A stretch of DNA of 32,000 nucleotides from Cupriavidus necator (GTDB taxonomy: Bacteria > Pseudomonadota > Gammaproteobacteria > Burkholderiales > Burkholderiaceae): the NCBI RefSeq assembly GCF_016127575.1, contig NZ_CP066018.1, forward strand, positions 2,430,001-2,462,000, read 5' to 3'. Shown piece by piece: positions 482 to 25,134 of this stretch (the first letter of the stretch is position 1; every line of letters begins with the position of its first letter). The position numbers and the translations under genes were made by a program. The notes under the pieces were generated by a model. It was not told the origin of the DNA, ran no database searches, and saw nothing but the letters and a program-made list of their open reading frames with translations.

Positions 482-5486
<5,005 letters not shown>

Positions 5487-5490
<4 letters not shown>

Positions 5491-6596
5491 GTATTCTGAA
5501 GGTGGGGCTTAGTTCCGGGCCGCTCTATCGCGGCGGGGACGGAATCAGCGTCTACACAGCAGCGCTCGCACGCGAGCTGGCACAGCTGGACTGTGCGGTT
5601 GTCCCATGCGTGTACTCGGAGAATGGCACCGCGGCGCGGGCGCCGGCGCAAGCGATACGGTTTTCGCGCTCGTTCGGACAGCAGGCGATGATGAGTGCTC
5701 TCGGCGTGCAATTGCATGTGGCCAGCCGGATCGCTGTCTATCATGCCACCGATTATCGCGTCGCTCGCATGGATTGCCCCGTCGTCGCGACCTTGCACGA
5801 TGCCGTTCCATTGCGGTTTCCCCAATGGACTTCATCCCGGCTGCGGCGTCTGAAGAACTGGCAGATCCGCCAATCCGGCCGGCTCGCGGATCATGTCATC
5901 GCGCATTCGAAGGCGGCGGTGAGCGACCTGACCGAGTACTTCGGCATCGATGAAAGCAGGATTTCGGTGGTCCCGTGCGGGGTTGACCGTCACTGGCTCG
6001 CGCCGGTGGACCGCGCGAGCATCGACGCTGCGATGACGCTATACAGGCTCGTCCCCGGCTATTATCTTTTTGTCGGCACCTTGCAGCCGCGCAAGAATGT
6101 CGGGCGCATCCTGCACGCCTATCTCGCGCTGCCCGCCAGCGTTCGTCGCGACCGTCAGCTGGTCATCGTCGGGCGTGAAGGCTGGCGTTGCGAGGCCGAC
6201 GTGGCGGCGATCCGTGCAGCACAAGCAGCCGGCGAGCGCGTGCTGTGGCTGGATACCGTGTCAAGCCAGGAAACCCTGCGCGCCATCTATGCACAAGCTG
6301 GTGTATTTGTGTTTCCGTCGCTGTATGAGGGCTTTGGCCTGCCGCTGCTAGAAGCATTCGCGTGTGGAGTTCCAGTGATTGCTTCGAACAGCTCCTGCTT
6401 GCCCGAAGTGGCCGGTGGGGCGGCCGTCGAGGTCGATCCGCTATCGGTGGAGGAACTGACCTCTGCCATGATCAGACTGGGAGAGGATGCTGGATTGCGA
6501 ACGCGGTGTATCGAGCAGGGTCGCAAACGGGCGCTTGAGCTTTCATGGGAGAAGACAGCACGTGCGACCATGGATGTCTATCGACGTCTCGTCTGA
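5487..6596 (+). CDS. GT4 glycosyltransferase (WbpY/WbdB-like candidate)
   Basis: 369 aa with FVFPSLYEGFGLPLLEAFACGVPVIASNSSCLPEVAG (the E-x7-E GT4 motif). ATGA overlap with the rmd stop at 5487-5490. Confidence 0.85.
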
Positions 6597-6610: not shown

Positions 6611-7726
6611 ATGCGCGTTCTCCACGTATTCAAGACCTATTTTCCCGACTCCTTTGGGGGCGTGGAGCAGGTCATCCGGCAGATCTGCCTTGGCGTCGAG
6701 GCGCAGGGCATGGAATGTCGCATCTTCACGTTAAGCAGGAATGCGAGGAACAAGCCGGTTATCCATGACGGGGCGACCGCAGTCTATCGCGCGCAGGTTA
6801 GCATCGATGTCGCCTCCACGCCGATGTCGTGGTCCGCGATGCAGTTGTTCAAGCGGCAGTGCGATTGGGCCGACATGATCCACTATCATTTTCCCTGGCC
6901 ATACGGCGATCTGCTGCATACGCTCGTGAGGCCGGGGAAGCCCGCGCTGGTCACTTATCATTCCGATATCGTGCGGCAGCGCACGCTGCTGAAGCTCTAT
7001 CAGCCGCTGATGCATCGCTTTCTGGGCCAAATGCGAGCCATTGTGGCCACTTCGCCGAATTATTTGGGCACGAGCGACGTTTTGGCGAAGTATCAGGACA
7101 AGGTCAGCATCATTCCTATCGGCGTGGATGAGCAAAGTTACCCGAAGCCTGACGAGCGTTTGATGGAACACTGGCGCGGCAAGCTGGGTGAGGGATTTTT
7201 CCTCTTTGTCGGCGTCATTCGCTACTACAAGGGGTTGCACATCCTGCTGGATGCCTTGAAGGGCACCGACCTCAGGGTTGCCATCGTGGGGGCGGGTCCT
7301 ATCGAGAAAGCCCTGCGCGAGCAGGCGAACCGATTGCGCCTTACAAATGTGCATTTTCTGGGCGCCCTGCCGGAAGCGGACAAGATGGCATTGCTCCATT
7401 TGTGCGGGTGTGTGGTATTTCCGTCGCACCTTAGATCCGAGGCTTTCGGGGTCACCCTGTTGGAAGGTGCGATGCTCGGCAAGCCGATGATATCGTCGGA
7501 AATCGGGACAGGCAGCAGCTTTGTAAATATCAATGGCGAGACCGGCATTGTAGTGCCACCCGGTGATGTGAGTTCGTTCCGGGAGGCAATGCAAATCCTG
7601 ACAGCATCGCCAGCTCTCGCGGAGGCGATGGGTAGCAAGGCGAAAGAGAGATTTGATACACTTTTTACCGCCAAGCGCATGGCGGATGCCTACGCCGAAC
7701 TCTACGCCGACCTGGCGCGACAATGA
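6611..7726 (+). CDS. GT4 glycosyltransferase (WbpZ/WbdC-like candidate)
   Basis: 371 aa. N-terminus MRVLHVFKTYFPDSFGGVEQVIRQI is typical of WbpZ/WbdC-type enzymes as I recall them. C-terminal VVFPSHLRSEAFGVTLLEGAMLGKPMISSEIGTG. Confidence 0.82.
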   Translation: MRVLHVFKTYFPDSFGGVEQVIRQICLGVEAQGMECRIFTLSRNARNKPVIHDGATAVYRAQVSIDVASTPMSWSAMQLFKRQCDWADMIHYHFPWPYGDLLHTLVRPGKPALVTYHSDIVRQRTLLKLYQPLMHRFLGQMRAIVATSPNYLGTSDVLAKYQDKVSIIPIGVDEQSYPKPDERLMEHWRGKLGEGFFLFVGVIRYYKGLHILLDALKGTDLRVAIVGAGPIEKALREQANRLRLTNVHFLGALPEADKMALLHLCGCVVFPSHLRSEAFGVTLLEGAMLGKPMISSEIGTGSSFVNINGETGIVVPPGDVSSFREAMQILTASPALAEAMGSKAKERFDTLFTAKRMADAYAELYADLARQ

Positions 7727-7773
7727 CAGGTTTGGGCTGTGTTGCCAGTGACCGCGCCTGGCCACTATTAGTA

Positions 7774-7789
7774 ATTCGACTAGTCGAAT
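7774..7789. repeat. Perfect 16-bp palindrome ATTCGACTAGTCGAAT in the AT-rich spacer between glycan modules; function unknown (operator or hairpin candidate)
   Basis: Read directly from the sequence. It is self-complementary over all 16 nt and lies in the 139-bp non-coding gap 7727-7865. Confidence 0.6.
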
Positions 7790-7865
7790 CCCTGCTGGAA
7801 GCCGCTGATTGAGCAGGCAACTAGAGCAGCATTTTCCGGCACAAGAGATTGAATAACCTACTGAG

Positions 7866-8948
7866 ATGAATAGCCTACTTAATTTTGAAAAAGCGCTGTC
7901 CGGCAGGAAGGTATTCGTCACCGGACACACCGGTTTTACCGGAGGCTGGGCCAGCGTATGGCTGCAAGCCATTGGCGCGAACGTAGCCGGCTTTGCCCTG
8001 CCGCCGGATACGACGCCCTCTCTGTTTCAGTGCCTCGGCGTTGACCAGCAAATCCCGACCGTCTTCGGCGATATCTGCGACTATCCCAGCCTGGCAGAGG
8101 CGGTCCGCGCCTTTGAGCCGGAGCTGATCCTGCATCTGGCGGCCCAGCCTTTGGTGCGCCGGTCCTACCGTGAGCCGCTGTCGACGTTTGCGGTCAATGC
8201 CCAGGGCACTGCCAACGTTCTGGAGGCGGCACGTGCCGTAAAAAGTGTCCGCGGCGTGCTGTGCATCACGACGGACAAGGTGTATCTGAACCGGGAGTGG
8301 CCATGGCCGTACCGCGAGAACGATCCGCTCGGCGGCAAGGACCCGTATAGCGCGTCGAAGGCCGCGGCCGAGATGGTGATACAGAGCTATGCGGCGTCCT
8401 ATCCCTGGTCTGAAAACCGGGGGCCCGCCATCGCCATCGCGCGAGGCGGCAATATTATCGGCGGTGGAGACTGGTCCGAAGACCGCCTGGTTCCGGACTT
8501 TGTCCGTGCCGTAGTTGCCGGGGAAACCTTGACCTTGCGGTATCCGGACGCTACCCGGCCATGGCAGCACGTCCTTGCCCTCGTATATGGATACCTAGTC
8601 CTGATGGCGGGGCTGATATCCGATCAGCCAGGACGATTCGCGCGAGCCTGGAATCTCGGACCGCAGGACATCAGGCAATATTCTGTGCGCGATGTGCTGG
8701 AGTTGATGAGCCAGCACTGGAAACGACCGGCACTGGAGTATCTGGACAACCCTTTGCCAGAAGCAGGGGCCCTCGCCCTCGATAGCTCGCTGGCCAGGAA
8801 TGCACTGGGCTGGCTGCCAGTCTGGGATACCGCTCGCGTCGTCAGCGAAACTGCCAGTTGGTACCGCGAGTTTTACGCGAATCCGGAGTCGGCGCGAGCC
8901 ATCACCGAGCGGCAGATCAATTCGTGGCGCGAGGGTATCAAGGAATGA
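7866..8948 (+). CDS. rfbG: CDP-glucose 4,6-dehydratase
   Basis: 360 aa. KVFVTGHTGFTGGWASVWLQAIGANVAGF N-terminus is typical of RfbG/DdhB. DPYSASKAAAE (YxxxK). Co-located with rfbF. Confidence 0.9.
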   Translation: MNSLLNFEKALSGRKVFVTGHTGFTGGWASVWLQAIGANVAGFALPPDTTPSLFQCLGVDQQIPTVFGDICDYPSLAEAVRAFEPELILHLAAQPLVRRSYREPLSTFAVNAQGTANVLEAARAVKSVRGVLCITTDKVYLNREWPWPYRENDPLGGKDPYSASKAAAEMVIQSYAASYPWSENRGPAIAIARGGNIIGGGDWSEDRLVPDFVRAVVAGETLTLRYPDATRPWQHVLALVYGYLVLMAGLISDQPGRFARAWNLGPQDIRQYSVRDVLELMSQHWKRPALEYLDNPLPEAGALALDSSLARNALGWLPVWDTARVVSETASWYREFYANPESARAITERQINSWREGIKE

Positions 8949-9766
8949 AATTCGTTATTGGAGCGGGCGGCCGTCTAGGTCAGGCATTGACCGCCTTGTA
9001 TCGAGAAGACAATGTGGTTGTCGTCGATCGCCAGTGCTACCGGGATTGGTGGCAGGATGGCTCCCAGGCTGCCATTTCACGTTATTTCGAGCAGTGGTCC
9101 GGTGTCGACAGCACAATATTCATTGCGGCGGGGATTCTCGATCCGAAGATTTCCGGCGAAGACCATCTTAGAGTCAATTTCCTGCTGCCAAAGCACCTGA
9201 TCGAGGGGACGGCCCAGGCAGGCATGCGGGTGGTGACGTTCGGTACGGTGATGGAAAAGCTGATTGCCAACCAGAACCCATACATCCACAGCAAGGCTAT
9301 GCTGGGCCAATACGTGGCGGAGCGCGCTGACCGGCTTGCTCATCTCAGGGTGCACACCCTCTATGGCATCGGACAGCCCAGTCCCTTCATGTTTCTCGGC
9401 CAGATTTGCCAGGCCCTGCGGCAGCAAACGCCTTTCGAGATGTCGCCGGGGAATCAGTTGAGGGAATACCATCACATCGAGGACGAAGTTCGGGCGATTG
9501 CAACACTGGTCGAGCAGCGGTCAAGCGGCGTGATCGACCTGAGTCACGGTCAGCCGGTACGGCTGAAGGATCTGGCAACGCACGTCTTCCGTAGCTTCGA
9601 TGCGGAGTCGCTGCTGCGCATCGGTGCTTTGCCCGACCCCGGCGACGAGAACTACCAGACGTTTTTCGAGCGCCCGAAGTCGTTGCAGAATATTCGCTTT
9701 CGTGAAACGCTTCCCTCGGTTGTGGACTATCTGAAAGCCTGCTCCCTAGGCTGGGAGGTGGCGTGA
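8945..9766 (+). CDS. Small NAD(P)-dependent SDR-fold sugar-nucleotide reductase/epimerase (candidate CDP-4-keto-6-deoxyhexose reductase)
   Basis: I re-set the start to the ATG at 8945, which is in frame with track ORF 8858 and forms an ATGA overlap with the rfbG stop. MKFVIGAGGRLGQAL (GxxGxxG) and YIHSK (YxxxK). 273 aa. Confidence 0.72.
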   Translation: MKFVIGAGGRLGQALTALYREDNVVVVDRQCYRDWWQDGSQAAISRYFEQWSGVDSTIFIAAGILDPKISGEDHLRVNFLLPKHLIEGTAQAGMRVVTFGTVMEKLIANQNPYIHSKAMLGQYVAERADRLAHLRVHTLYGIGQPSPFMFLGQICQALRQQTPFEMSPGNQLREYHHIEDEVRAIATLVEQRSSGVIDLSHGQPVRLKDLATHVFRSFDAESLLRIGALPDPGDENYQTFFERPKSLQNIRFRETLPSVVDYLKACSLGWEVA

Positions 9767-10749
9767 TGACGGCAGCGGAACAAGTGATGGCAGAGCGCAG
9801 GCCGCTGATTTCGATTTCCATCCCGGTTCTGAATGAGGCCGGGAATATTAATGCGCTGTACGCTCGCCTGACAGCGGTTGCCGAGAAGATGCGCGACCGG
9901 TGCGATCTCGAATTCGTATTTTCCGATAACCACTCGGATGACGATACGTGGGATATCCTGAAGCGACTGGCAGCCACCGATCCACGTGTAAAGGCAATCC
10001 GCTTCTCCAAGAACTACGGCTTCCAGCGCTCCATTTTTGCAAATTATCTCCACACCCGTGGCGATGCGGTCATGCAGATTGATGCGGATCTGCAGGATCC
10101 GCCGGAATTGCTGGAATCGTTCTTCGAACTCTGGCAACAGGGATACCATGTAGTCTATGGGATTCGCAAAAAGCGCCCTGAAGGATGGCTGCTGAACAAT
10201 TTCAGGCGCCTTGGCTATTGGGTCATCGACAAGATCAGCGAGCACCCGATTCCGCGCGATGTGGGTGATTTTCGCCTGATCGACCGGAAGGTGATCGAGG
10301 CCCTGTCGGGAATCCGGACGTCCAGTCCTTACCTGCGTGGCATGATTGCCGGTCTTGGATTCAATCAGACCGGCATTCCCTATGATCGCGATGCGCGGGT
10401 AGCGGGGGAGAGCAAGTTCAATGTATCGCGGTTGGTCCGGCTGGGACTGACTGCGGTCTTCAACCACTCCACCGCACCGCTGCGCGCTGCCTCGTTTCTG
10501 GGCGCTGTCATCCTGGCGGCCAGCTTCCTGGGTGCTCTGTACTATGTCGTGCTTCGCCTGTTTCATCCGGAACTGCCACGCGGACTGGCAAGCATTCACG
10601 TTCTTGTCCTGTTTGGTATCGGGTTGAATGCGTTTCTGCTCGGTATTATCGGGGAATATATCCTGAGAATATATCTGGTGCTGCGTGCCGAGCCGATCGC
10701 CATTATCGAGCAAAGCATCAACTTTTCCAGGTCTGAACTCAAACTCTAG
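9766..10749 (+). CDS. GT2 polyprenyl-phosphate glycosyltransferase (GtrB/ArnC/DPM1-like)
   Basis: ISISIPVLNEAGNI...FSDNHSDDDT...QIDADLQDPPE (GT-A DxD region). Two C-terminal TM helices plus LLGIIGEYILRIY, the GIIGEY motif typical of GtrB/ArnC. GGGAGG at 9753-9758 lies 7 nt before the ATG at 9766. GTG at 9763 is an alternative start. TGATG overlap with the preceding stop. Confidence 0.85.
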   Translation: MTAAEQVMAERRPLISISIPVLNEAGNINALYARLTAVAEKMRDRCDLEFVFSDNHSDDDTWDILKRLAATDPRVKAIRFSKNYGFQRSIFANYLHTRGDAVMQIDADLQDPPELLESFFELWQQGYHVVYGIRKKRPEGWLLNNFRRLGYWVIDKISEHPIPRDVGDFRLIDRKVIEALSGIRTSSPYLRGMIAGLGFNQTGIPYDRDARVAGESKFNVSRLVRLGLTAVFNHSTAPLRAASFLGAVILAASFLGALYYVVLRLFHPELPRGLASIHVLVLFGIGLNAFLLGIIGEYILRIYLVLRAEPIAIIEQSINFSRSELKL

Positions 10750-10759
10750 GGGGAAATCG

Positions 10760-11533
10760 ATGAAGGCAGTCATTCTTGCCGGCGGTCTCGGGACTCGAAT
10801 TGCCGAGGAATCGGATACCAAGCCGAAGCCGATGGTGGAGGTGGGCGGGCGGCCACTGCTCTGGCACATCATGAAGATCTACGCGCATCATGGCATCAAG
10901 GACTTCATCATTTGCCTGGGCTACAAGGGCTATGTGATCAAGGAATTCTTCTTCAACTACTATCGGCACATGGCCGATATGCAGATCGACCTCAAGACCG
11001 GCGATCACCAGATCCTGAACAGCCAGTCCGAGGACTGGCGCATCACGCTGGTCGACACCGGCTCCGAGACGATGACCGGCGGGCGGCTGAAACGTGTGGC
11101 AAGTCATCTGGGCAACGATACCTTCTGCCTGACCTACGGAGATGGTTTGTCCAATATCGATATTACGGCGGAGCTGCAGTTCCACCGGCGGCATGGAAAG
11201 CTTGCAACCGTTGCCGCGGTTCAACCTCCTGGCCGTTTTGGCGTGCTCAATCTGGATGCCAACCAGAATGTCTCTAGTTTCGAGGAGAAGCCTCGTGACG
11301 AAATCGGCTGGATCAATGGTGGATTCTTCGTCCTGGAGCCGTCGGTCGTTCGCTATATCGAAGACGATGCGACTTCATGGGAAGCGGCGCCGCTAATGAA
11401 TCTCGCCAAAGACGGTCAGCTTGCCGCCTTTCAGCACACCGGATTCTGGCAGCCGTGTGACACGCTGCGCGATAAGCGCGAACTGGAGAGCCTCTGGAAC
11501 AAGCGGAAGGCGCCCTGGCGCATTTGGGAATAG
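10760..11533 (+). CDS. rfbF: Glucose-1-phosphate cytidylyltransferase
   Basis: I re-set the start to the ATG at 10760 (in frame with track ORF 10685, with AGGGGG upstream). MKAVILAGGLGTRIAEESDTKPKPMVEVGGRPLLWHIMKIY... 257 aa, the canonical RfbF/DdhA length and N-terminus. Confidence 0.92.
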   Translation: MKAVILAGGLGTRIAEESDTKPKPMVEVGGRPLLWHIMKIYAHHGIKDFIICLGYKGYVIKEFFFNYYRHMADMQIDLKTGDHQILNSQSEDWRITLVDTGSETMTGGRLKRVASHLGNDTFCLTYGDGLSNIDITAELQFHRRHGKLATVAAVQPPGRFGVLNLDANQNVSSFEEKPRDEIGWINGGFFVLEPSVVRYIEDDATSWEAAPLMNLAKDGQLAAFQHTGFWQPCDTLRDKRELESLWNKRKAPWRIWE

Positions 11534-11535
11534 CG

Positions 11536-12567
11536 ATGACGGAAGGCGGGAAAGGAAGGCGTGACTGGATAAAGCAACTGGTGGGAGGGGCGATCACCCT
11601 CGTCTGTCTGTTCATCATTGCCAGGCAGGTCGATGTTGGCGAAGTCGTCAAGGCACTCGAGCATTTTCATTGGCCGTTTCTCACGCTTGGCATTGCATCA
11701 CTGAGTCTGGGCTACGGGCTCAGGATTCTGCGCTGGTCGCTGATGCTACGTGCCGCGGGTGCCGACGCTAAGTGGCGGAACTGTGCCACGCCGTTTCTTG
11801 GCTCGATTGCCTTGAATAACGTGCTGCCGTTGCGGCTGGGTGATTTGATCCGTGCTTTCGTGTTTCCCAATGCCATGGGAATCAGCAAGACCACGGCCGC
11901 TAGCAGTCTGTTGATGGAGCGCCTGATCGATCTCATGACGCTGCTGGGCTGTCTTGCGATCGGGCTGGTGGCGAGTCAGGGTACGCGCTTGCCGGGCATG
12001 CTGGCTGAATCGGTCGTCGGCATCGCCATTGGCGGCGGCGTCATCCTGATTGCCGGTTTTCTATTCAGCGGAAGACTGGCCAACCTTTGTCAGAAGTTCG
12101 CGCAGGGGAATGCGGCATCGCGGCCATCGGCAAGTTTTTCGCGAGCCCTGCTGATACTGGCCAGCTTGCTGCGGAGTTTCGAGGCGATGTCGAGGCCGCG
12201 TGTGCTATTGACTGTCGTTGCAGTCTCGATGCTGGTCTGGGCCGGCGAATCGGGTCTGTTCTATTTCGTATTACGGGGTTTCGGATTTGATGCAAATCCG
12301 GCCCTTGCTGTGGTGGTGATGGCGATCGCAACCCTCTCGACGCTGGTGCCCTCATCGCCTGGCTATATCGGTCCGTTTCATCTGGCTGCCTTCACGGCGG
12401 TCTCGCTGCTCGGTGGTACGTCCGCGCAAGCAGGAAGCTATGCCGTACTGGTCCATCTAGCGTTATGGCTGCCCACCACCCTTGCCGGCGCAGTGGCAAT
12501 CTGGATGCGCCCGTCACTGTTCAGGGCAATCCGCTCCGGACCGAATCCCGAATTGAAGATTAATTGA
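11536..12567 (+). CDS. Polytopic membrane protein, LPG_synthase_TM / MprF-flippase-domain-like (UPF0104, 'flippase-like domain' family)
   Basis: About 8 hydrophobic helices. LRILRWSLMLRAAG...FLGSIALNNVLPLRLGDLIRAFVF matches the conserved R..RW...N..LP.R.G(D/E)..R pattern I associate with this family. Track start 11524 is a TTG; the ATG at 11536 lies 2 nt after the rfbF stop. Confidence 0.68.
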   Translation: MTEGGKGRRDWIKQLVGGAITLVCLFIIARQVDVGEVVKALEHFHWPFLTLGIASLSLGYGLRILRWSLMLRAAGADAKWRNCATPFLGSIALNNVLPLRLGDLIRAFVFPNAMGISKTTAASSLLMERLIDLMTLLGCLAIGLVASQGTRLPGMLAESVVGIAIGGGVILIAGFLFSGRLANLCQKFAQGNAASRPSASFSRALLILASLLRSFEAMSRPRVLLTVVAVSMLVWAGESGLFYFVLRGFGFDANPALAVVVMAIATLSTLVPSSPGYIGPFHLAAFTAVSLLGGTSAQAGSYAVLVHLALWLPTTLAGAVAIWMRPSLFRAIRSGPNPELKIN

Positions 12568-12577
12568 GTGGTAAACC

Positions 12578-13882
12578 ATGAGTAATTACGATGTCGTTGT
12601 GGTCGGTGCCGGCTTTACCGGGCTGACGGCAGCTTATGCCCTTGCCAAGCAGGGAAAGAAGGTTCATGTCGTCGAGGCCGATGCTACCCCGGGTGGACTG
12701 GCCGGAACGTTCGAATTCGCCGATGGCGTCAAGCTGGAGAAGTTCTATCACCACTGGTTCAACAATGACGTCTACGTCCCGGAACTGGTGAAGGAACTCG
12801 GCATGGAGGGGGATGTGATTCTTCTTCCTACCCGCACCGGCATGTACTTCAACGGGCGCATGTGGAAGCTGTCGACCCCGCTCGACCTGCTGAAGTTCAA
12901 GGCGCTATCGTTCATCGACCGGATCCGCCTTGGCTTGCTCGTATTCCAGGTCCGTCGGATCAAGGACTGGAAGACTATCGAGCATCTGAGCATCCGTGAA
13001 TGGCTGGAGCCGATCTGCGGGAAGACCGTCTATCGGATCGTCTGGGAGCCTCTTATTTCGTCGAAGTTTTCCGTTTATGCGGAAGCAGTCAACGCTGTCT
13101 GGATGTGGAAGAAGCTGGTACTGCGTGGCAGCACCAGGAATGACAAGGGCGGCGAGGAACTCGCCTACTTCAAGGGGGGCTTTGGCCGGTTGGCGGAGGC
13201 GATGGTCGCGGCAATCGAACGGGCCGGCGGCGAGGTCACGTTTAAGAACAAGGTAAATGGTGTTCTTGCCGACGGCAAGAAAATCACGGGCCTGGAGACC
13301 GAGCAAGGCGAACTGAAGGGGAAACAGTATCTCTTCACGCCGTCTTTCCCGATTATTGCCGACATGTTTGAAGGCACAGCCCCGCCCGAGTGGCTGGCCC
13401 GTCTTCGCCGGGTACGCTACCTGGGCAACGTTTGCCTGGTGCTGCGCCTTAATCAGAGCCTTTCGGAAACCTATTGGCTGAACGTGAATGACCCCGGCTT
13501 TCCTTTTGTCGGGGTAATTGAACACACCAACTTCGACAAGCCGGAGAACTATCAGGGTTCTCATATTGCGTACCTGTCGCGATATCTTGCGGTCGAGGAT
13601 CCGGTGTGGGGCTACACCGATGAGCAATATGTTGACTTCGCGTTTGAGCACCTGAAGCGCATGTTCCCGAAGATGGACCGCTCCTGGATTGTCGAACACC
13701 GTGTGTGGCGTTCGATGTACGCACAGCCGGTTACCGAGAGACAGTATTCGGAGTATGTACCCAGCGAGGAGACGCCCTACGAAAACGGATGGATATCTAC
13801 CATGGCGCAGATCTATCCAGAGGATCGAGGCACGAACTACGCCATCCGCGAGGGCAAGAGAATCGTCGAGAAGCTTGCGTAG
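12578..13882 (+). CDS. FAD/NAD(P)-binding flavoprotein (amine-oxidase / phytoene-desaturase / UGM-like superfamily); specific function unknown
   Basis: MSNYDVVVVGAGFTGLTAAYALAKQGKKVHVVEADATPGG is a classic GxGxxG beta-alpha-beta motif with an acidic residue and GG. 434 aa with no TM segments. Confidence 0.8.
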   Translation: MSNYDVVVVGAGFTGLTAAYALAKQGKKVHVVEADATPGGLAGTFEFADGVKLEKFYHHWFNNDVYVPELVKELGMEGDVILLPTRTGMYFNGRMWKLSTPLDLLKFKALSFIDRIRLGLLVFQVRRIKDWKTIEHLSIREWLEPICGKTVYRIVWEPLISSKFSVYAEAVNAVWMWKKLVLRGSTRNDKGGEELAYFKGGFGRLAEAMVAAIERAGGEVTFKNKVNGVLADGKKITGLETEQGELKGKQYLFTPSFPIIADMFEGTAPPEWLARLRRVRYLGNVCLVLRLNQSLSETYWLNVNDPGFPFVGVIEHTNFDKPENYQGSHIAYLSRYLAVEDPVWGYTDEQYVDFAFEHLKRMFPKMDRSWIVEHRVWRSMYAQPVTERQYSEYVPSEETPYENGWISTMAQIYPEDRGTNYAIREGKRIVEKLA

Positions 13883-13920
13883 TGGGATCGTTGGACGGGG
13901 ACGTTTCTGGAACTGAGAAA

Positions 13921-15858
13921 ATGCAAAAAAATCTATCGGCATTTCAGATAGGGTTGATGGCAGCAGTGGCCGCGATCCTCATTGTTTTCAATGTGGATTC
14001 GATGTGGAGCCAGAGTGTCGATTTGGCTCATCACTATGCACTCGCATTCAGAATTTCCGAAAACTGGACCTTGACGCCCGGGGACCCGTCGATTGCGGAG
14101 ATGAATTTCTATCCCCGCACAAGCCATATCCTGGCGGCGATTCTCGGGCTCATCTTTAATTCAACGTTCCTCGGCATTCATTTGCTTAGCCTGATTGCAC
14201 TTGTCGTGCTCTGGGGTTCTGTGGTCTTTGTGCTCAGCACGCTGCCGCGGCGTGTTGCCAGTGTGTCCATTCTCGCATTGACGACACTGCTGGTCCTGAA
14301 TCGCGTGGTGCTTCGGCTCGAAATCCATGGTGCGGAGATAGATGATAATTTTTTCTTCTCGCAGCTAGTCGCACAGGGAATGGTGCTGCTGATTTTGGCG
14401 GTCGCAGTGTTCGTGGAGGTGCACTCGCGCATTAGTTATGCCTTCGGCATCTTTCTGGTGGCGGCCGTCTATATCGTTACCGGAACACATCTCCTGCCTG
14501 CGCTCGAATTGCTCGGGGTACTGCTGGGCATCGTCATACTGAATGCCTGGACTCGGTCGGCCGGCACACTCGGGAATCGAGTGCGGACTTATCTTTGGTA
14601 CGCATTGATCGCCATTTCAGCGATAGCAGCCACCTTTTTGAATCCAGCATTTTCCGCGATGCGGAAAATTTCTGAGAATAACGGTGCTTTGCATCTGGTG
14701 CGAATTCCGGGTGCAGGGATGCTCGTGACGCTAGCGTTGCTGGTGGCAGTAGTTTCCCTGGCGCTAATGATCATATGGTGGCGCTCCGGAAAAGACACGG
14801 TGCGCTTCAATGTGGCACTTAAGTACTTCGGACTTTACGGCGGGTCGATTGCTTGCCTGTGCATATGCCAGATTGTGCTCTTGCGATTTGGATATGGCAG
14901 CGAATATGCGGCTAAGAAGTATGCCTTTGGTTTGTCAACGCAATTATTTATCTCCGCTGCAATCCTGATTGGCCTTTACTTCAATCGCGGCCGTGCCACG
15001 GAGGACCAGGGCGGATGGTCCGGCAACGAGCATGGTTTATCTTTGCTGGTGCTGGCCTCATTCACCGGCATCATCCTGTTGATACTTCCATCCTCGAAAC
15101 GGCTAGATACTTCGGATGTGGTCTCCCTCGAGCACCAGCTGATCGTTCTTCGTGATGTCGGACTGTCCCCGTCGAGTGCAAAGCAGAATGTTGTAATTGG
15201 CTTGCGAAACATGTCGCCGGTTATCAACTACATGTTTTCGGTTGCCGTCGCAAAGACCTATAGAGAATTTGCGATAGACGTTTTGATGGGAAACAAGCTG
15301 GGCAATATCTCAAGCTACGGCACTATTCTGACTTCGACGGGGTTTGCGCCGTATTATCGCGCCGATTGTGCGCGTTCTGTCGCATCGGGCGCTGTTTCTC
15401 TCGTTGACGCCACCTGCATGGCAGAATCGTTGGCAAAGCCGGAAATCTGCAAGGGCAAGCTTGACTTTACTTCGAGGGGCTGGATGAATGCGTCTGCTAT
15501 TCCCGGATTCAGCTGGGCGGAGGATCACGGGCGCTGGACAGATGGTCGAAGTGCAGCGATCACATGTTCGGTTAGCGACGACATGCCGAGCCGGGTGAAG
15601 ATTCGTCTGGCGCCTTTCTTTTATGGTAGCCACCGTACGCAACGTCTCATTGTCAAGGTGGGATCGTCCAGCAGCGAGTACAGCTTTGCCCAGGAAAACG
15701 CGCCAGGATCGATCGATGTGGCCCTCCCGCAGACGCGGCCGGATGAAAATCTGACCATTCGGTTGCAAATGCCGGATGCAATTTCGCCGATGCAGGCAGG
15801 AATGAATCCAGACGAACGCATGCTGGGATTCCTGATTGAATCGGTTACGTTCGAATAG
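13921..15858 (+). CDS. Orphan polytopic membrane protein (about 12 TM) with a C-terminal soluble domain of about 200 aa; GT-C-like transferase or atypical polymerase candidate
   Basis: I re-set the start to the ATG at 13921. The upstream part of track ORF 13705 overlaps the flavoprotein gene and is Arg-rich junk. There are many hydrophobic segments (AFQIGLMAAVAAILIVF, FLGIHLLSLIALVVLWGSVVFVL, GMLVTLALLVAVVSLALMIIWW, ...). A hydrophilic tail from about aa 435 carries 4 Cys. This is the lowest-GC stretch in the window. I recognised no family signature. Confidence 0.7.
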   Translation: MQKNLSAFQIGLMAAVAAILIVFNVDSMWSQSVDLAHHYALAFRISENWTLTPGDPSIAEMNFYPRTSHILAAILGLIFNSTFLGIHLLSLIALVVLWGSVVFVLSTLPRRVASVSILALTTLLVLNRVVLRLEIHGAEIDDNFFFSQLVAQGMVLLILAVAVFVEVHSRISYAFGIFLVAAVYIVTGTHLLPALELLGVLLGIVILNAWTRSAGTLGNRVRTYLWYALIAISAIAATFLNPAFSAMRKISENNGALHLVRIPGAGMLVTLALLVAVVSLALMIIWWRSGKDTVRFNVALKYFGLYGGSIACLCICQIVLLRFGYGSEYAAKKYAFGLSTQLFISAAILIGLYFNRGRATEDQGGWSGNEHGLSLLVLASFTGIILLILPSSKRLDTSDVVSLEHQLIVLRDVGLSPSSAKQNVVIGLRNMSPVINYMFSVAVAKTYREFAIDVLMGNKLGNISSYGTILTSTGFAPYYRADCARSVASGAVSLVDATCMAESLAKPEICKGKLDFTSRGWMNASAIPGFSWAEDHGRWTDGRSAAITCSVSDDMPSRVKIRLAPFFYGSHRTQRLIVKVGSSSSEYSFAQENAPGSIDVALPQTRPDENLTIRLQMPDAISPMQAGMNPDERMLGFLIESVTFE

Positions 15859-15882: not shown

Positions 15883-15907
15883 CTCGCCGTGGTTGTGTCA
15901 CGGCGAG
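15883..15907. terminator. Hairpin between convergent genes (possible bidirectional terminator)
   Basis: CTCGCCGTG (15883-15891), a 7-nt loop, then CACGGCGAG (15899-15907). It lies in the 65-bp gap between the + strand block and the - strand block. There is no clear U-tract. Confidence 0.4.
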
Positions 15908-15923
15908 CCCATGACCGCCATCC

Positions 15924-17150
15924 TCAAGCGGACTTGCGGCGCCTGATCAGTGCGATCGCCTTCATATAGATATCTATCACGCGGCCCTCGCTAAAGCGCG
16001 CATCCACATCCAGTCGTCCGGCCTTGCCCATTTGCCGCAGCGTTTCCTCCTCGCTTTGGCAAAGCTCGAGCATGGTTTGCGAGAGATCCTCTGCACTGCG
16101 TGGGCGACACAGTCTTCCTGTTACCCTATCGCGCACAACGTCCCGGCATCCCGGCACGTCCGTGGCCACAATCGGCTTCTCCATTGAAGCAGCTTCAAGC
16201 AGTGTGCGAGGCACGCCTTCGCGGTATGAGGGCAAAACAATACAGTCCGCCTGCGCTATGGCCCCTCTGACATCCGTTGCTGTACCAAGATATTCGATGA
16301 GCCCTTCATCCTGCCACGCCAGGAGTTGCGTCCTTGAAATGGCGCTGGGGTTCTCGACATCGGCAGGCCCGAGAAGCTGAAACCGGGCTGTCGGATAGAC
16401 GGCACGAATGCGGCGTGCAGCCTCGACATATTCGCCGACCCCTTTGTCCCATAGCATTCGCGCAATCAGGAGGAAGCGGAATGTGTTGTTTTCTCGTGGC
16501 TGCCGCTCGCCTGGTGTGTAGTGCTCGAGATCAATCCCTTCGCTGGGAAGCACAAAGGTTCGTTGCTCGCTGACCAAGCTCCGCTTGACGAATTCGCGAC
16601 GGTCGTCTTCGTTGAGAAACCATACTTGATGCACTGAGCGCAGCGCCAGACGGTATAGCGCGCGTCCGATTCGTGCGACAAAGTTATTGTTGATGAAAAC
16701 GAAGCCAAGCCCGGTCGTCACTGCAATGCACGGGACGCCGGATAACCTTGCGGCCAGCGAGCCATAAATGTTCGGCTTGATCGTGTACTGAAATGCGCAG
16801 TCCGGTTTAAGCTGCCTATACAACCTGGTCAACTGGCTGAAGCACTTCCAGTCAGCTAACGGATTGGCACTCCTGGCCGATAGTGTCAGAGGGTGGAATT
16901 CGCAGCCAAGTGCCTGTAACGCTTCAGAGCTGCGATCCACAGGTGCAATGATACTGACCTTCGCTCCGTGCGCGAGTAAAGCACGCACGACCCCGCCACG
17001 GTACTGCTGTATAGACCAACTCGAATTGCCGACGAATGCTATATGGATGCCGTCCAGATGCAGCTTGCCGGGCTGATGGGCCACCTCTTCAAATCGCTTT
17101 GATACCGCGTGGGCCGGATGTTCGTCAATACTGTTCAGCATCCTTGTCAC
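15924..17150 (-). CDS. GT4 glycosyltransferase (PglA/WbuB/CapM-like subfamily)
   Basis: IAFVGNSSWSIQQYRGGVVRALLAHGAKVSIIAP...LKPDCAFQYTIKPNIYGSLAA is the N-terminal pattern of this GT4 subfamily. C-terminal IVLPSYREGVPRTLLEAASMEKPIVATDVPGCRDVV. The track start at 17150 is a GTG; the ATG at 17141 is an alternative. Confidence 0.8.
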   Translation of the reverse strand: MTRMLNSIDEHPAHAVSKRFEEVAHQPGKLHLDGIHIAFVGNSSWSIQQYRGGVVRALLAHGAKVSIIAPVDRSSEALQALGCEFHPLTLSARSANPLADWKCFSQLTRLYRQLKPDCAFQYTIKPNIYGSLAARLSGVPCIAVTTGLGFVFINNNFVARIGRALYRLALRSVHQVWFLNEDDRREFVKRSLVSEQRTFVLPSEGIDLEHYTPGERQPRENNTFRFLLIARMLWDKGVGEYVEAARRIRAVYPTARFQLLGPADVENPSAISRTQLLAWQDEGLIEYLGTATDVRGAIAQADCIVLPSYREGVPRTLLEAASMEKPIVATDVPGCRDVVRDRVTGRLCRPRSAEDLSQTMLELCQSEEETLRQMGKAGRLDVDARFSEGRVIDIYMKAIALIRRRKSA

Positions 17151-17360
17151 ATGCCAATTCGGCGGTCACACAGGGCCAAAAAGTTGCGGTTGTGCTCCGT
17201 CTTGCATTCCTGATTCCTTGTACAGAAGATCTGCGCTGAAGACAGTGGATTTTAGCAGAACCCCTGCAAGGGCCCCCTTATGGGCTACTGTGTCACCGCA
17301 CAACCAGGAGAAGGCGCTCCGGGCTGCTACGAGCGATCTGGTTGCGGTAGCATTACCAGC

Positions 17361-18614
17361 TCACGCAGCTTGCTTTGCGGCATCAGACTCGCGAGCCAGC
17401 ACGACGAACCCCAAGCTCACAACAACCGCCAGTGCATTGGCCGCTATATATCCGTAGACCGCACCCTGCACACCATACTTGGGGATCGTGAACAGGTCGA
17501 CAGCGGCTGTTGCAACTAACACGAGCAGCGATTTGCCTACTAGCCAAGCTGGCTTGCGCAGATGGACGGCAAGCAAAGCCAAGCCCGCATCCGCGAAGAT
17601 CAGTCCAGAGGCAATGGCGCCTTGCTGCAGAAGGTTCACAGTTGCCTCAAAACGCTCACCATACAGAAGTTGCACAATCCACGGTGCGCCGATAGCAATG
17701 AGAATACCGCCCGCCATTCCGATCGCCGCCATGCCTCCCGCCACACGCAAGACGTTGTAACGCGCCTTGGCCAGGCTCGGCTGCGCATAGACCGCGAGCG
17801 GTGCAACCGCGCTCGCGATGATTGTGGCCAGCAGGGAGAAATTGTCAAGTACCTGCATGCACGCCGCATAGGCCCCAAGGTCGACTAAGGGGACGCGTGG
17901 TTTCAGCAGCAACTGGTCGATCCGCCGCGCGCTGAACAGAAGGATCATGCTGATCCAGAATACGGAGCCGTCGCGCACCAGGCGGATAAGCAATCCACGA
18001 TCCGGCGAGATTCGGATACGTGGGCGCCGGCGGGCATAGTACCAGGCGAGCATCGTTGCCAGCAGTCCTGATTCCAAGGCAAAGGTCCAGGCGTACTCGT
18101 GGACGGCGTGCACGGCGGAAAAATAGAGTGCAGCGATCAGGACAGCCTTGAACGCCAGCGCGGACAGGCTGAAGACTACGCTAGGGCGGTTGTCGGTGTG
18201 CGCCTGCATCCAGGCCGTCACGACACCGAACGGTTCGCGCAGCAGGATGGAAATACCCAGAATGGCTGCGATATGCACGGTGGTGGCATCTTGCCCGGTC
18301 AGCACGCTGCTCACGAGCAGAGCCAGGTAGCCAGCAATGGAGGCAAGCGCACGCAGGCCGAAGGCATGTGCGATCAGATGGGACTGGGCATCCGGTGACG
18401 GATGCGCGACCAGCCGCGGCACAACAACTTCAGCACCACAAATCAACCCAATCGACGCCGCAATCAGCACCAGCGACTGCGCATACTGAAAATGCGCAAA
18501 GCCCTCCGGTCCGACGCCGCGTGCAATCAACGCCACGATGGCGATGCTGACAGTGATCTGAAGAGCCCGCTCGCCCAGCAGCCAGACGACATTGCGCGCG
18601 ATCTGCCTACGCAT
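17361..18614 (-). CDS. wzx: Oligosaccharide-unit flippase (MOP/Wzx family)
   Basis: I re-set the start to the ATG at 18614 (M60 of track ORF 17361..18791). MRRQIARNVVWLLGERALQITVSIAIVALIARGVGPEGFAHF is a typical Wzx N-terminus. About 12 TM, 417 aa. It overlaps the upstream GT4 stop by 8 nt. Confidence 0.75.
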   Translation of the reverse strand: MRRQIARNVVWLLGERALQITVSIAIVALIARGVGPEGFAHFQYAQSLVLIAASIGLICGAEVVVPRLVAHPSPDAQSHLIAHAFGLRALASIAGYLALLVSSVLTGQDATTVHIAAILGISILLREPFGVVTAWMQAHTDNRPSVVFSLSALAFKAVLIAALYFSAVHAVHEYAWTFALESGLLATMLAWYYARRRPRIRISPDRGLLIRLVRDGSVFWISMILLFSARRIDQLLLKPRVPLVDLGAYAACMQVLDNFSLLATIIASAVAPLAVYAQPSLAKARYNVLRVAGGMAAIGMAGGILIAIGAPWIVQLLYGERFEATVNLLQQGAIASGLIFADAGLALLAVHLRKPAWLVGKSLLVLVATAAVDLFTIPKYGVQGAVYGYIAANALAVVVSLGFVVLARESDAAKQAA

Positions 18615-19749
18615 GGTCGGCCTTGCCGGGAGCGGGCAGCGCGGCTCCCCGACGCTGCACGAGTTCCCGATACAGGTCGATCCAGCGCTGCGCGACACTG
18701 GCCAGGCTGTATGCCGCAACGGCGTGGGCGCGGCCTGCCGCGACATCCTGCCGGCCCAGCAGGGCCGCACGCATGCCGCGCGCAAGCGCATCGGTGTCGG
18801 CTGCCGGCACTATGCTGCCCGACGCCGCCAGCAGCGCGCGGATGCCTGACACGTCGGTGGCCACCACCGGCGTTTCGCAGGCCAGCGCCTCGGCCACCAC
18901 GAGGGGCAGGCCTTCGCGAACGGAAGACAGCACGAACAGGTCGGCGGCGTTTATCAGCGCGGGGACGTTGTCACAAGGGCCGAGCAGCCGCACGGCGTGC
19001 GAGAGCCCGAGCGCCGCGGCGTGCCGCACCAGCGTCGCCTTCAGCGGACCATCGCCGGCAATTAGCAAGCGAATGCTTGCGCCAGTTTCCGGATCGCCCG
19101 CAAGTTGCCGGAACGCTTCGATCAGGCGCTGCTGGTCTTTCTCATGGACCAGGCGGCCGACATTGAGCACGACCTTTGCATCGGGGCCGAGTCCCAGCGC
19201 CTGCCGCGTCTGCGCACGCGCCTGCGGGTCGCGGCGGAACCGGTCGGTATCGATGCCATTGGGCATCACGCTGATCCGCCCGGCGGTCGTGGCACCGACG
19301 TCCAGCATGTACTGTCTGCCTTCCGCGCTGACATGGGTGGTGGCCGCACACAAGCCATCCGTCAACCGATACGCCAGCATGCGCAGCCTGCCCCCCTCGC
19401 GCGAGCTGTGCGCGGTGCAGAGGACGGGGATGGGCGCGCCACCGGCCCGCTGCGGCCGCAGCAGCCGCGCGAAGATGTTGGCGTGGAACATGTGCGCGTG
19501 GACGATGTCCGGCTGCCAGCGCCCGACCCACTTGCGCACGGCCTGCAAGGTGAGTAGGAAACGCAGTGGGTCTTTGCGCAGGTCGACGCGATGCAGCGTC
19601 ACTTCCCTGGGCAGCGCCACCTCTTGCGCCAGGGTCAGGCTGACTACAGCCACCTCATGGCCGAAGGCGACGAACTGGCGTGCGAGGTCCGCAACCTGGC
19701 GTTCGGCGCCGCCAAGCCGAAGTCCTGTCGTCAGCAGCAGGATGCGCAT
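18607..19749 (-). CDS. GT4 glycosyltransferase
   Basis: MRILLLTTGLRLGGAERQVADLARQFVAFGHEV N-terminus; FVLSSVREGLPLVVAEALACETPVVATDVSGIRAL GT4 motif. 380 aa. Confidence 0.85.
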   Translation of the reverse strand: MRILLLTTGLRLGGAERQVADLARQFVAFGHEVAVVSLTLAQEVALPREVTLHRVDLRKDPLRFLLTLQAVRKWVGRWQPDIVHAHMFHANIFARLLRPQRAGGAPIPVLCTAHSSREGGRLRMLAYRLTDGLCAATTHVSAEGRQYMLDVGATTAGRISVMPNGIDTDRFRRDPQARAQTRQALGLGPDAKVVLNVGRLVHEKDQQRLIEAFRQLAGDPETGASIRLLIAGDGPLKATLVRHAAALGLSHAVRLLGPCDNVPALINAADLFVLSSVREGLPLVVAEALACETPVVATDVSGIRALLAASGSIVPAADTDALARGMRAALLGRQDVAAGRAHAVAAYSLASVAQRWIDLYRELVQRRGAALPAPGKADHA

Positions 19750-25126: not shown

Positions 25127-25134
25127 TCCGGTGC

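Follow-up and report, generated by a model that had tools for sequence, protein, structure and literature searches.

A seven-gene cassette of Cupriavidus necator predicted to attach a CDP-derived 6-deoxyhexose side branch to O-polysaccharide

We analyzed a 32,000-nucleotide stretch of the genome of Cupriavidus necator (contig NZ_CP066018.1, positions 2,430,001 to 2,462,000; designated as the window), in which seven tightly packed open reading frames (ORFs), all on the + strand, occupy positions 7866-15858. They encode enzymes for the supply of a CDP-6-deoxyhexose together with a glycosyltransferase of the GtrB/ArnC type, a membrane protein with an MprF flippase domain, a flavoprotein, and a large polytopic membrane protein. 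We propose that the module is best explained as a self-contained, horizontally mobile cassette, and that it probably adds a single 6-deoxyhexose side branch to the finished O-polysaccharide on the periplasmic side of the inner membrane. The system operates in the manner of the Gtr, gml, and Citrobacter systems, from which it is set apart by a private CDP-6-deoxyhexose supply, a PF03706 flippase that is interchangeable with GtrA, an unclassified GT-C glycosyltransferase, and a constant flavoprotein. An earlier reading of the sequence alone (the original prediction) had proposed a Gtr/Arn-like periplasmic glycosylation system fed with a CDP-6-deoxyhexose, and this core reading is supported by the homology of the glycosyltransferase, the GT-C fold of the terminal protein, and the substitutions found at several gene positions in related loci. 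The seven genes are listed below.

7866-8948, + strand: rfbG, CDP-glucose 4,6-dehydratase, 360 aa (TIGR02622 equivalog, 419.8 bits, cutoff 278)
8945-9766, + strand: small extended short-chain dehydrogenase/reductase (SDR), 273 aa (PF01370, 45 bits)
9766-10749, + strand: GtrB/ArnC-type polyprenyl-phosphate glycosyltransferase of family 2 (GT2), 327 aa, with two C-terminal transmembrane (TM) helices (PF00535, 82 bits)
10760-11533, + strand: rfbF, glucose-1-phosphate cytidylyltransferase, 257 aa (TIGR02623 equivalog, 421.7 bits, cutoff 300)
11536-12567, + strand: polytopic membrane protein with an MprF flippase domain (PF03706/UPF0104), 343 aa (PF03706, TIGR00374)
12578-13882, + strand: cytoplasmic flavin adenine dinucleotide (FAD) protein, 434 aa, NF005560/PRK07233 family (526 bits to NF005560, whose name is 'hypothetical protein')
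13921-15858, + strand: predicted GT-C-fold glycosyltransferase, 645 aa, combining about 11-13 TM helices with an alpha/beta domain in the periplasm and a carbohydrate-binding module (CBM) at the C-terminus

In the pathway that we propose, RfbF would produce CDP-glucose and RfbG would convert it to CDP-4-keto-6-deoxy-D-glucose, both steps following from equivalog-level matches to hidden Markov models (HMMs). The 273-aa SDR would then reduce C4, probably yielding CDP-D-fucose, and the GT2, assigned to its family by homology, would load the sugar from this presumed donor onto undecaprenyl phosphate (Und-P). The most economical role for the flavoprotein would be a ring contraction with reduced flavin at the cytoplasmic face, by which the lipid-linked pyranose would become Und-P-D-fucofuranose (Und-P-D-Fucf). 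The MprF-domain protein, which shares its slot with GtrA, would flip the lipid-linked sugar, and the GT-C protein, whose fold is modeled, would hold the polymer by its C-terminal CBM and may transfer the sugar by means of an Asp34/His37/His38 loop located after the first TM helix.

Predicted sugar supply, lipid loading, and terminal transfer

The ORF listing of the window agrees with the original prediction on the position and + strand orientation of all seven genes and bears out the junctions described there. The rfbG stop overlaps the SDR start in an ATGA sequence (8945-8948), the SDR stop overlaps the GT2 start within GTGATG (9763-9768), and the remaining genes are separated by gaps of 10 nt (10749/10760), 2 nt (11533/11536), 10 nt (12567/12578), and 38 nt (13882/13921). 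RfbF and RfbG both score above the equivalog cutoffs of their HMMs and are thus members of the CDP-6-deoxyhexose pathway. The enzymes of the 3,6-dideoxyhexose branch and an aminotransferase had been described as missing; likewise, our domain scan found no ORF, whether in the module or on either side of it, with domains of RfbH/RfbI (the pyridoxamine phosphate-dependent E1 and the E3) or of an aminotransferase.

The SDR begins with an N-terminal GAGGRLG sequence and carries the YxxxK motif at Y113-K117, and we infer that it is an NAD(P)H-dependent C4-ketoreductase acting on CDP-4-keto-6-deoxyglucose. Reduction of C4 by this enzyme, probably to D-fucose, is suggested by the coupling of its gene to rfbG, by the biochemically demonstrated pathway in Campylobacter jejuni HS:41, and by the presence of D-fucose in Pseudomonas syringae. 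In C. jejuni HS:41, CDP-D-fucofuranose is formed by a cytidylyltransferase, a CDP-glucose 4,6-dehydratase, an NADPH-dependent C4-reductase, and an FADH2-dependent mutase (Simons et al. 2025, PMC12369002). The polysaccharide of P. syringae pv. actinidiae ICMP 18884 is described as alpha-D-rhamnans with alpha-D-fucofuranose in a passage of a 2025 JBC paper that cites Ghods et al. 2015 (PMC12173070), and alpha-D-Fucf is also reported for the O-polysaccharide of pv. phaseolicola (PMC10888714).

A phmmer search of the PDB aligned the GT2 with the crystal structure of Synechocystis GtrB (5EKP; 188 bits, E 2e-54, query residues 15-315 on 28-327). The alignment takes in the DAD catalytic motif ('idadlqdp'), the LGIIGEY segment, and both C-terminal TM helices, so that the GIIGEY motif noted in the original prediction is indeed aligned with its GtrB counterpart. 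ArnC structures were matched with 114-127 bits over residues 14-323, and the best NCBIfam matches were PgfS (178 bits) and ArnC (133 bits), both of which fell under the equivalog cutoffs. Since the homology to GtrB and ArnC covers the full length, membrane helices included, the GT2 is assigned as a polyprenyl-phosphate glycosyltransferase rather than a chain extender of the cytoplasm. The neighboring genes rfbF and rfbG suggest a CDP-linked donor, from which the enzyme would transfer the sugar to Und-P.

The 343-aa protein belongs to the PF03706/TIGR00374/COG0392 family: it matches PF03706 (LPG_synthase_TM) with 203.8 bits over positions 2-302 of the 302-position profile and the TIGR00374 'flippase-like domain' with 75.6 bits (cutoff 43.2), while a sequence search returned no PDB match. 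The window contains this protein instead of the GtrA-family (PF04138) flippase of Gtr systems. In the archaeal AglD fusion and in Clostridioides difficile HexSDF, a GT2 making a lipid-linked sugar is paired or fused with a PF03706 domain, for which flipping of that sugar has been proposed (PMC5898192, PMC10128005). Based on published predictions (PMC5898192) and on its equivalence in position with GtrA in related loci, the PF03706 protein is a predicted flippase for the Und-P-sugar, and the occupation of the same slot by GtrA fits the earlier assignment of the flippase role to the MprF-like protein.

The terminal 645-aa protein is 100% identical to E6A55_14740, a 'hypothetical protein' of C. 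necator H16, and its HMM match is limited to a weak C-terminal DUF7024 (36 bits, aa 525-641, corresponding to nt 15493-15843). We aligned 40 homologs with 32-52% identity. Pfam at E ≤ 1 recognized DUF7024 only in these 40 family members, leaving the membrane domain uncovered, and sequence searches of the PDB with the single sequence and the 40-member profile gave no match. Among the invariant columns of the alignment are S32, D34, H37, H38, Y39, R44, H69, and H190; the first five lie just past TM1, with D34 located 10 residues after it. An AlphaFold2 model built from the alignment (pLDDT 90.6, pTM 0.85) consists of TM1 at residues 7-24, a helix-rich membrane domain that ends near residue 390, a small alpha/beta domain, and a beta-sandwich starting near residue 520. 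When this model was compared with the PDB by Foldseek, the top matches were AftA (8IF8, E 3e-5), AftD (6W98), ArnT from C. metallidurans (5F15), AglB (3WAJ), and EmbA/EmbB (7BVC), and the C-terminus matched CBM6/35/36 modules. The model thus places the protein among the GT-C enzymes at the fold level, with a C-terminal CBM, and the D34/H37/H38 loop is the candidate site of its chemistry.

Further families of 630-700-aa hypothetical membrane proteins occur alongside the cassette in other genomes (L002:12002-13909 on the - strand, L005:1973-3859, L005:11943-14042, L008:10317-12278, and L007:6716-8709, the last apparently divided into ORFs of 341 and 297 aa). They have related C-terminal DUF7024/CBM-like domains and unrelated membrane domains, which suggests a modular superfamily of membrane glycosyltransferases joined to CBMs, with multiple side-chain transferases per locus.

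Recurrence of the cassette and exchange of its parts

All seven genes recur with their order unchanged in P. syringae (L001/L002), a Pectobacteriaceae strain (L003), Massilia niabensis (L005), a Yersinia contig (L008), and other surveyed genera. Identical gene order in unrelated genera argues that the arrangement is not a product of chance. Between C. necator and the cassettes of P. syringae, Pectobacteriaceae, and Massilia, identity is 80-82% for RfbF, 78-80% for the GT2, 78-79% for the flavoprotein, 74-77% for RfbG (encoded by the first cassette gene there), 57-65% for the 343-aa protein, 49-51% for the SDR, and 37-42% for the 645-aa protein. A gap ahead of the dehydratase gene is likewise found in these three groups. 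No match to the cassette was found in complete genomes of E. coli or in the phage collection.

Individual slots are filled by different proteins in related loci. The Yersinia cassette ends with a gene for another protein, of 653 aa, whose C-terminus matches DUF7024 weakly; Achromobacter retains the six donor-side genes, but its last gene encodes a 486-aa YfdI_N (GtrC-type) protein. In a second group of loci (class B; L004, L006, and others), rfbF and rfbG are missing, GtrA (PF04138) stands in the PF03706 slot, and the GT-C protein is about 34% identical to that of C. necator. At greater distance, a flavoprotein with about 50% identity adjoins a GtrB-like GT2 in Gemmatimonadota, Alphaproteobacteria, Deltaproteobacteria, Cyanobacteria, and Bacteroidia; in these loci, PF03706 and a PMT_2-type GT-C are often adjacent as well, and there are no SDR or nucleotide-sugar genes. 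The original prediction had put the 645-aa protein in the transferase slot, which is in line with its GT-C fold and with the YfdI_N and PMT_2 proteins that take its place in relatives. The protein is much less conserved than the others and is replaced by other GT-C families, which fits a role that is specific to the acceptor and determines the serotype, and we propose that the terminal transferase is the swappable, acceptor-specific part of a system whose donor-making genes are conserved.

A pattern scan was run on one genome per species, and relatives of the flavoprotein were found in at least 564 genomes from many phyla. The 80 best loci formed the survey set, in which 35 had a flavoprotein at least 60% identical and enough flanking sequence. 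A GT2 was present in all 35, a flippase-like gene in 33 (21 PF03706, 12 GtrA), and a small SDR in 31. Eighteen loci carried the full CDP class and 12 belonged to the GtrA class; a recognizable terminal transferase was found in 23, and terminal proteins of the 645-aa family and of the Yersinia type were present in 15 and 9 loci, respectively. In loci with a flavoprotein of about 50% identity, a GT2 was adjacent in 22 of 27. The quartet of GT2, flippase-like protein, flavoprotein, and large membrane protein, whose co-occurrence the original prediction had offered as a test, thus recurs across genomes with or without rfbF and rfbG. The FAD enzyme had been regarded there as an extra member embedded in the module; this view does not hold, since the enzyme is a constant partner across related loci and no incidental insert.

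Two minimal units were also observed. A metagenome-assembled genome of Bacteroidia (L068:9054-11308) has only the GT2 and the flavoprotein, and another locus (L025:10001-13325) has the flavoprotein, the GT2, and PF03706, each between unrelated housekeeping genes. These units indicate that the pair of flavoprotein and GtrB-like synthase is the conserved kernel across phyla.

The flavoprotein and alternative readings

No other member of the system is as conserved or as constant as the flavoprotein. Its Rossmann motif begins at residue 5, and the HMM scan assigned it to the Pfam families Amino_oxidase and NAD_binding_8. Across classes and genera it is 70-85% identical, and it stays about 70% identical in class B loci, where the GT2 falls to about 26% and rfbF/rfbG are missing. 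Its gene is positioned after the GT2 and flippase genes in all the cassette loci compared. The genes that neighbor homologs with about 50% identity include no SDR or other reductase partner, and homologs at 32-33% identity are located in UbiA/PRPP-type pentofuranose clusters, a pathway that operates without a nucleotide sugar. Conservation, position, independence of an SDR, and the homologs in pentofuranose clusters together suggest that the family acts on polyprenyl-phosphate sugars. In addition, the class B copy of Rhizobium is 78% identical, versus 31-33% for the pentose-cluster copies of Agrobacterium and Rhizobium; identity thus follows cluster type rather than taxonomy, which suggests that the enzyme reads the sugar and not only the lipid.

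Most likely, then, the flavoprotein acts on the lipid-linked sugar. Among the options for its chemistry, we tentatively put foremost a redox-neutral pyranose/furanose mutase, predicted from sequence and context and most likely working on the Und-P-sugar. This role is favored because it leaves one job for each of the seven genes, matches the chemistry of C. jejuni, and explains the Fucf of P. syringae. The wider proposal that NF005560/PRK07233 represents a new enzyme class of pyranose-to-furanose mutases on polyprenyl-phosphate sugars, converting Und-P-D-fucopyranose to Und-P-D-Fucf in this case, is possible but doubtful. An hhalign comparison with E. coli Glf, a UDP-galactopyranose mutase (UGM), gave 95% probability over 292 columns (residues 4-335), lining up VNDPGFPFVGVIEHTNF with the UGM signature FTDANVPYTRIIEHKHF and revealing a shared IEH(T/K)(N/H)F motif. 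The local similarity has a z-score of about 4.5 against shuffles, and tblastn with Glf reaches cyanobacterial members of the flavoprotein family over residues 5-319. None of the 92 loci examined contains a Glf-type gene.

Several observations weigh against this interpretation of the flavoprotein and of the cassette. By both profile and fold, the closest solved relatives of the flavoprotein are phytoene desaturase (PDS), monoamine oxidase (MAO), and protoporphyrinogen oxidase (PPO). In sequence profile it is about as far from UGM as from these families, but UGM was not in the Foldseek top 50 for the flavoprotein model. This model is of moderate quality (pLDDT 74.5) and poor in the putative substrate region. 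Pfam detects no GLF (PF03275) domain, and in the hhalign alignment the diphosphate-binding Arg of UGM (E. coli R278) stands opposite the near-invariant G312. The Foldseek TM-scores of the 645-aa protein against GT-C enzymes are low (0.31-0.38, though with probability 0.99-1.0); such values are usual for remote multi-domain matches, and the protein is assigned at the level of the fold, to no named GT family. The D-rhamnan acceptor and the identity of fucose are extrapolated from P. syringae to C. necator, and the P. syringae locus also holds rmlA, rmlB, and an rmlD-like gene, with no rmlC in the locus, so that a 6-deoxy-D-hexose could come from these genes as well. The convergent Wzx/Bac_transf cluster could instead provide the acceptor. 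Everything proposed for the cassette beyond family assignment is predicted from sequence, modeled structure, gene context, and work on other organisms. As for the rml genes, they form the 'L-rhamnose operon' in Table 2 of PMC7820976 (L002:14176-17068) and could yield a dTDP-6-deoxy-D-hexose unless rmlC is present elsewhere in the genome.

Two other chemistries can be considered for the flavoprotein. It could be a true oxidase, analogous to DprE1 in another fold, which oxidizes a ring hydroxyl of the Und-P-sugar, after which a reductase, either the small SDR or an enzyme of the cell, inverts the center or the keto-sugar itself is transferred. The amine-oxidase/PDS/PPO superfamily consists mostly of dehydrogenating enzymes, a small SDR stands beside the flavoprotein in the 31 of 35 close loci mentioned above, epimerization on Und-P-sugars is documented (PMC11127046), and lipid-linked pentose clusters couple flavoenzymes of varied folds with SDRs (L091/L092, and the GMC oxidoreductase of Rhizobium CCGE531). 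We nevertheless consider this role unlikely: the sole SDR of the seven-gene form is coupled to rfbG and needed for the reduction of the 4-keto group, leaving none to spare, loci with the roughly 50% identical flavoprotein hold a GT2, flippase, and GT-C but no SDR, and the furanose ring of P. syringae D-Fucf would be left unaccounted for. Modification of the polyprenyl tail, i.e., saturation or isomerization of an isoprene unit as by retinol saturase or phytoene desaturase, would instead create a dedicated carrier pool. The best match in both profile and fold comparisons is plant phytoene desaturase over its full length (5MOG, 65.6 bits, ahead of MAO-A with 58, 3KA7 with 57, and UGM 1I8T with 53.5; Foldseek E 1e-21, TM-score 0.60, followed by 3KA7 and PPO), with the prenyl-binding Rab GDI also ranking high. 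Furthermore, the flavoprotein partners two unrelated types of lipid-phosphate-sugar synthase, GT2 and UbiA, and is far better conserved than the sugar-specific GT2. Its identity, however, tracks the type of cluster and sugar and not taxonomy, while a single shared lipid substrate predicts otherwise, and the contraction of the Fucf ring would stay unexplained. We also know of no modified undecaprenyl carriers in these bacteria, and a role on the tail seems quite improbable.

Alternatives to the proposed acceptor and to the terminal step were weighed in the same manner. The cassette might modify another periplasmic acceptor, such as lipid A or core, a protein, or whatever the convergent Wzx/Bac_transf cluster produces. 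GtrB/ArnC systems also serve lipid A (through ArnT) and protein O-glycosylation, and PgfS is the best NCBIfam match of the GT2; genes for a Wzx-like flippase, Bac_transf, and GT4 lie directly downstream on the opposite strand, and in Yersinia, Achromobacter, and L004 the cassette is apart from O-antigen genes. Against such acceptors, the cassette abuts ABC-type O-antigen genes in five independent genomes, free-standing gtr clusters act on O-antigen made elsewhere in the genome, and the CBM-like domain of the transferase resembles the kind that binds undecorated O-polysaccharide in the Citrobacter GT-C (PMC11127046); we judge them to be improbable. The 645-aa protein shares large size, a polytopic character, and poor conservation with Wzy proteins, and a Wzx-like gene is near, which would allow for an ordinary Wzy polymerase or O-antigen ligase acting with the GT2 as a cytoplasmic chain extender. 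This scenario, which the original prediction had named as its refutation, is contradicted by the evidence and has very little probability. At E ≤ 1, none of the 40 family members matched Wzy_C (PF04932), and the window has its WaaL gene at another place (26223-27638). Fold comparison retrieved GT-C enzymes working with polyprenyl-monophosphate sugars and neither Wzy nor ligases, the GT2 aligns end to end with GtrB/ArnC including the membrane helices, and GtrC-type and PMT_2 proteins stand in for the 645-aa gene in relatives. The assignment as Wzy or WaaL was thus rejected.

Assignment of the flavoprotein to named enzymes was also attempted. A canonical UGM was rejected for lack of the GLF domain and of the conserved Arg, and a DprE1 homolog because the fold is different from the VAO-type FAD_binding_4; L092 has a genuine FAD_binding_4 protein alongside a homolog of the NF005560 flavoprotein. 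Phytoene desaturase/CrtI was likewise rejected, with scores of 47 bits versus 238 for TIGR02734, 36 versus 569 for TIGR02731, and 70 versus 283 for HpnE, and the similarity to PDS 5MOG is at the superfamily level only. A DprE1/E2-style epimerase pair is unlikely as a general role, since distant loci are without an SDR.

Distant homologs of the flavoprotein were seen in lipid-linked pentofuranose clusters of Burkholderia stagnalis (L091:2500-8739) and Agrobacterium salinitolerans (L092:2506-8688), in which the order is HAD-UbiA synthase, DprE1-like FAD_binding_4 protein, DprE2-like SDR, 310-aa SDR, flavoprotein, and GtrA. Two flavoenzymes and two SDRs in each cluster suggest that polyprenyl-phosphate-pentose remodeling is more elaborate than described so far. 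A three-component pentofuranose cluster that Kelly et al. 2024 list, on plasmid pRCCGE531b of Rhizobium sp. CCGE531 (L093:9971-17913), encodes a GMC-family flavin oxidoreductase, two SDRs, an SMR transporter, and a 658-aa hypothetical GT-C; the GMC enzyme is a third flavoenzyme fold tied to lipid-linked sugar pathways.

Related systems and the genomic neighborhood

The cassette has been listed before: in P. syringae pv. actinidiae ICMP 18884, it corresponds to IYO_022960-022995 in the CPA (common polysaccharide antigen) locus, beside wbdA/wbdD/wzt/wzm/gmd/rmd (Jayaraman et al. 2020, PMC7820976). The series is labeled there, without experiments, as 'synthesis of unknown sugar' and 'unknown'. 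The statement in the original prediction that no system of this composition had been characterized stands insofar as we found no paper characterizing the combination, but the cluster itself was already on record and the pairing of GT2 with PF03706 has the precedents cited above. Our literature searches found nothing on LPG_synthase_TM with a glycosyltransferase or on DUF7024, and the later papers on P. syringae lipopolysaccharide (LPS) that were found do not mention the CDP genes.

The closest parallel is found in Citrobacter youngae O1/O2, in which a three-component periplasmic addition of a pentofuranose side chain to an ABC-type O-antigen has been proven (Kelly et al. 2024, PMC11127046); we found no follow-up on furanose/GT-C systems beyond that paper. 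Its components are a lipid-phosphate-sugar synthase (ORF15, PPPRS), a flippase (ORF14), and a GT-C (ORF12, the founder of GT136), and an SDR was proposed to epimerize the Und-P-sugar. As in our proposal, a single furanose branch is added after polymerization, in the periplasm, to an ABC-type O-antigen with D-Rha and Man, the donor is linked to polyprenyl monophosphate, and auxiliary enzymes remodel the lipid-linked sugar. ORF12 has 652 aa with the essential D31 and a C-terminal CBM at 503-652, to which the 645 aa, D34, and CBM at about 520-645 correspond here. The Citrobacter donor, however, derives from PRPP by a UbiA-type synthase, whereas a CDP-sugar and a GtrB-type GT2 are used here; the flippase is of the MATE or SMR type rather than PF03706, and no flavoprotein of the NF005560 family was described. 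An hhalign comparison of the 40-member profile with the 658-aa GT-C candidate from the Rhizobium CCGE531 cluster, taken from the GT136 paper, gave 0.7% probability; ORF12 itself was not compared.

The GtrA/GtrB/GtrC systems of Shigella and Salmonella phages and gmlABC of Klebsiella also share a GtrB-type synthase, a flip step, and a swappable acceptor-specific GT-C, and, like gtr clusters, the cassette is mobile, lower in GC, and sometimes free-standing. They draw on housekeeping UDP-Glc or UDP-Gal, whereas the cassette has its own CDP-6-deoxyhexose pathway, an MprF-type flippase, and an obligatory flavoprotein. The HS41.17-HS41.21 genes of C. jejuni follow the same succession of cytidylyltransferase, dehydratase, SDR C4-reductase, and flavin step, the first two of which are recognized here at the equivalog level. 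There, the mutase bears the annotation of a nucleotide-sugar pyranose/furanose mutase and has the CDP-sugar as its substrate, and the product goes to a cytoplasmic Leloir transferase; here the flavoprotein has no GLF domain and resembles phytoene desaturase or MAO no less than UGM, and the sugar would be routed through Und-P.

Mycobacterial decaprenyl-phosphate-arabinose synthesis (UbiA/Rv3806c, DprE1, DprE2, the GtrA-like Rv3789, and Aft/Emb) likewise combines a flavoenzyme and an SDR near a polyprenyl-phosphate sugar with a small flippase-like protein and GT-C furanosyltransferases with CBMs. In structure, the 645-aa protein matches AftA and AftD best, and distant flavoprotein homologs lie beside DprE1- and DprE2-like genes in proteobacterial clusters. 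In contrast, DprE1 has a VAO/FAD_binding_4 fold and the present flavoprotein an amine-oxidase/PDS fold, and in mycobacteria the sugar comes from PRPP and the arabinan is polymerized, not added as a single branch. AglD and HexSDF differ in serving dolichyl-phosphate-dependent N-glycosylation or diacylglycerol glycolipids and have no GT-C, flavoprotein, or CDP-sugar genes.

If the proposal is correct, it explains genetically how D-rhamnan O-antigens receive side branches of D-fucofuranose (or another 6-deoxyhexose). In P. syringae, side chains shape serotype and tailocin/phage sensitivity correlates with the CPA locus, in which these genes have been labeled 'unknown' since 2020. The proposal would also extend three-component periplasmic glycosylation by a CDP-sugar supply of its own, a flippase of the MprF type, and a GT-C family not yet classified, and would give a testable role, possibly an undescribed activity, to a widespread 'hypothetical' flavoprotein family that is nearly always beside GtrB-like synthases. 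Should the flavoprotein be a lipid-sugar mutase, GtrB-type synthase, mutase, MprF/GtrA flippase, and GT-C would form a four-component route for hexofuranose branches on surface glycans. The genes would also be portable parts for glycoengineering of glycans decorated with furanose or deoxy sugars.

The boundaries of the cassette and the neighboring genes are as follows.

2-481, + strand: WbdD-like coiled-coil C-terminus, a heptad-like Leu/Glu/Arg-rich segment in frame 2 of a gene that runs off the left end
481-3561, + strand: WbdA-like double GT4, 1026 aa (Pfam)
3558-4598, + strand: Gmd (Pfam)
4555-5490, + strand: Rmd-like reductase (Pfam)
5487-6596 and 6611-7726, + strand: two GT4s (Pfam)
7727-7865: intergenic spacer, 139 bp, GC 51.8% versus about 60% in the flanks
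15884-15908: inverted repeat, perfect 9-bp stem and 7-nt loop, CTCGCCGTGGTTGTGTCACGGCGAG
15924-21190, - strand: second polysaccharide set with GT4, Wzx-like Polysacc_synt flippase, GT4, and Bac_transf initiating transferase (Pfam)
21326-30278: LPS core/export genes for phosphomannomutase, GT9 heptosyltransferase, WaaA Kdo transferase, GT4, META/DUF4377, and outer-membrane efflux protein
26223-27638, - strand: WaaL-type O-antigen ligase

By analogy with P. syringae, the most likely acceptor is an ABC-transporter-type D-rhamnan made by the upstream genes. In P. syringae, Pectobacteriaceae, Massilia, and L006, the cassette is flanked by genes for a WbdD-like methyltransferase, a double GT4, Wzm/Wzt, and Gmd/Rmd. 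The segment at 2-481 is typical of the WbdD 'molecular ruler' and implies that chain length is controlled in the manner of E. coli O9a. No Wzy was recognized in the window.

The spacer upstream of the module is probably an operon boundary or promoter region. Its length of 139 bp is as originally reported, whereas the description as AT-rich does not apply, the GC content of 51.8% being merely under that of the flanks; a promoter scan found no match to the sigma-70 consensus inside it. On the right side, the convergent hairpin predicted earlier corresponds to the inverted repeat at 15884-15908, whose arms (CTCGCCGTG-7 nt-CACGGCGAG) lie between convergent stop codons. The terminator scan did not report this repeat because it has no T-run, and within the module the promoter/terminator scan gave nothing above shuffled expectation.

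The GC content of the module was computed as 56.6%, lower than the 60.7% on its left, 62.0% on its right, and 66.2% further right, in keeping with the earlier remark that it falls under its flanks, and the 645-aa gene has the lowest value within the module (53%). The GC content of 63-69% across 21326-30278 indicates that the O-antigen region (52-62%) is compositionally foreign.

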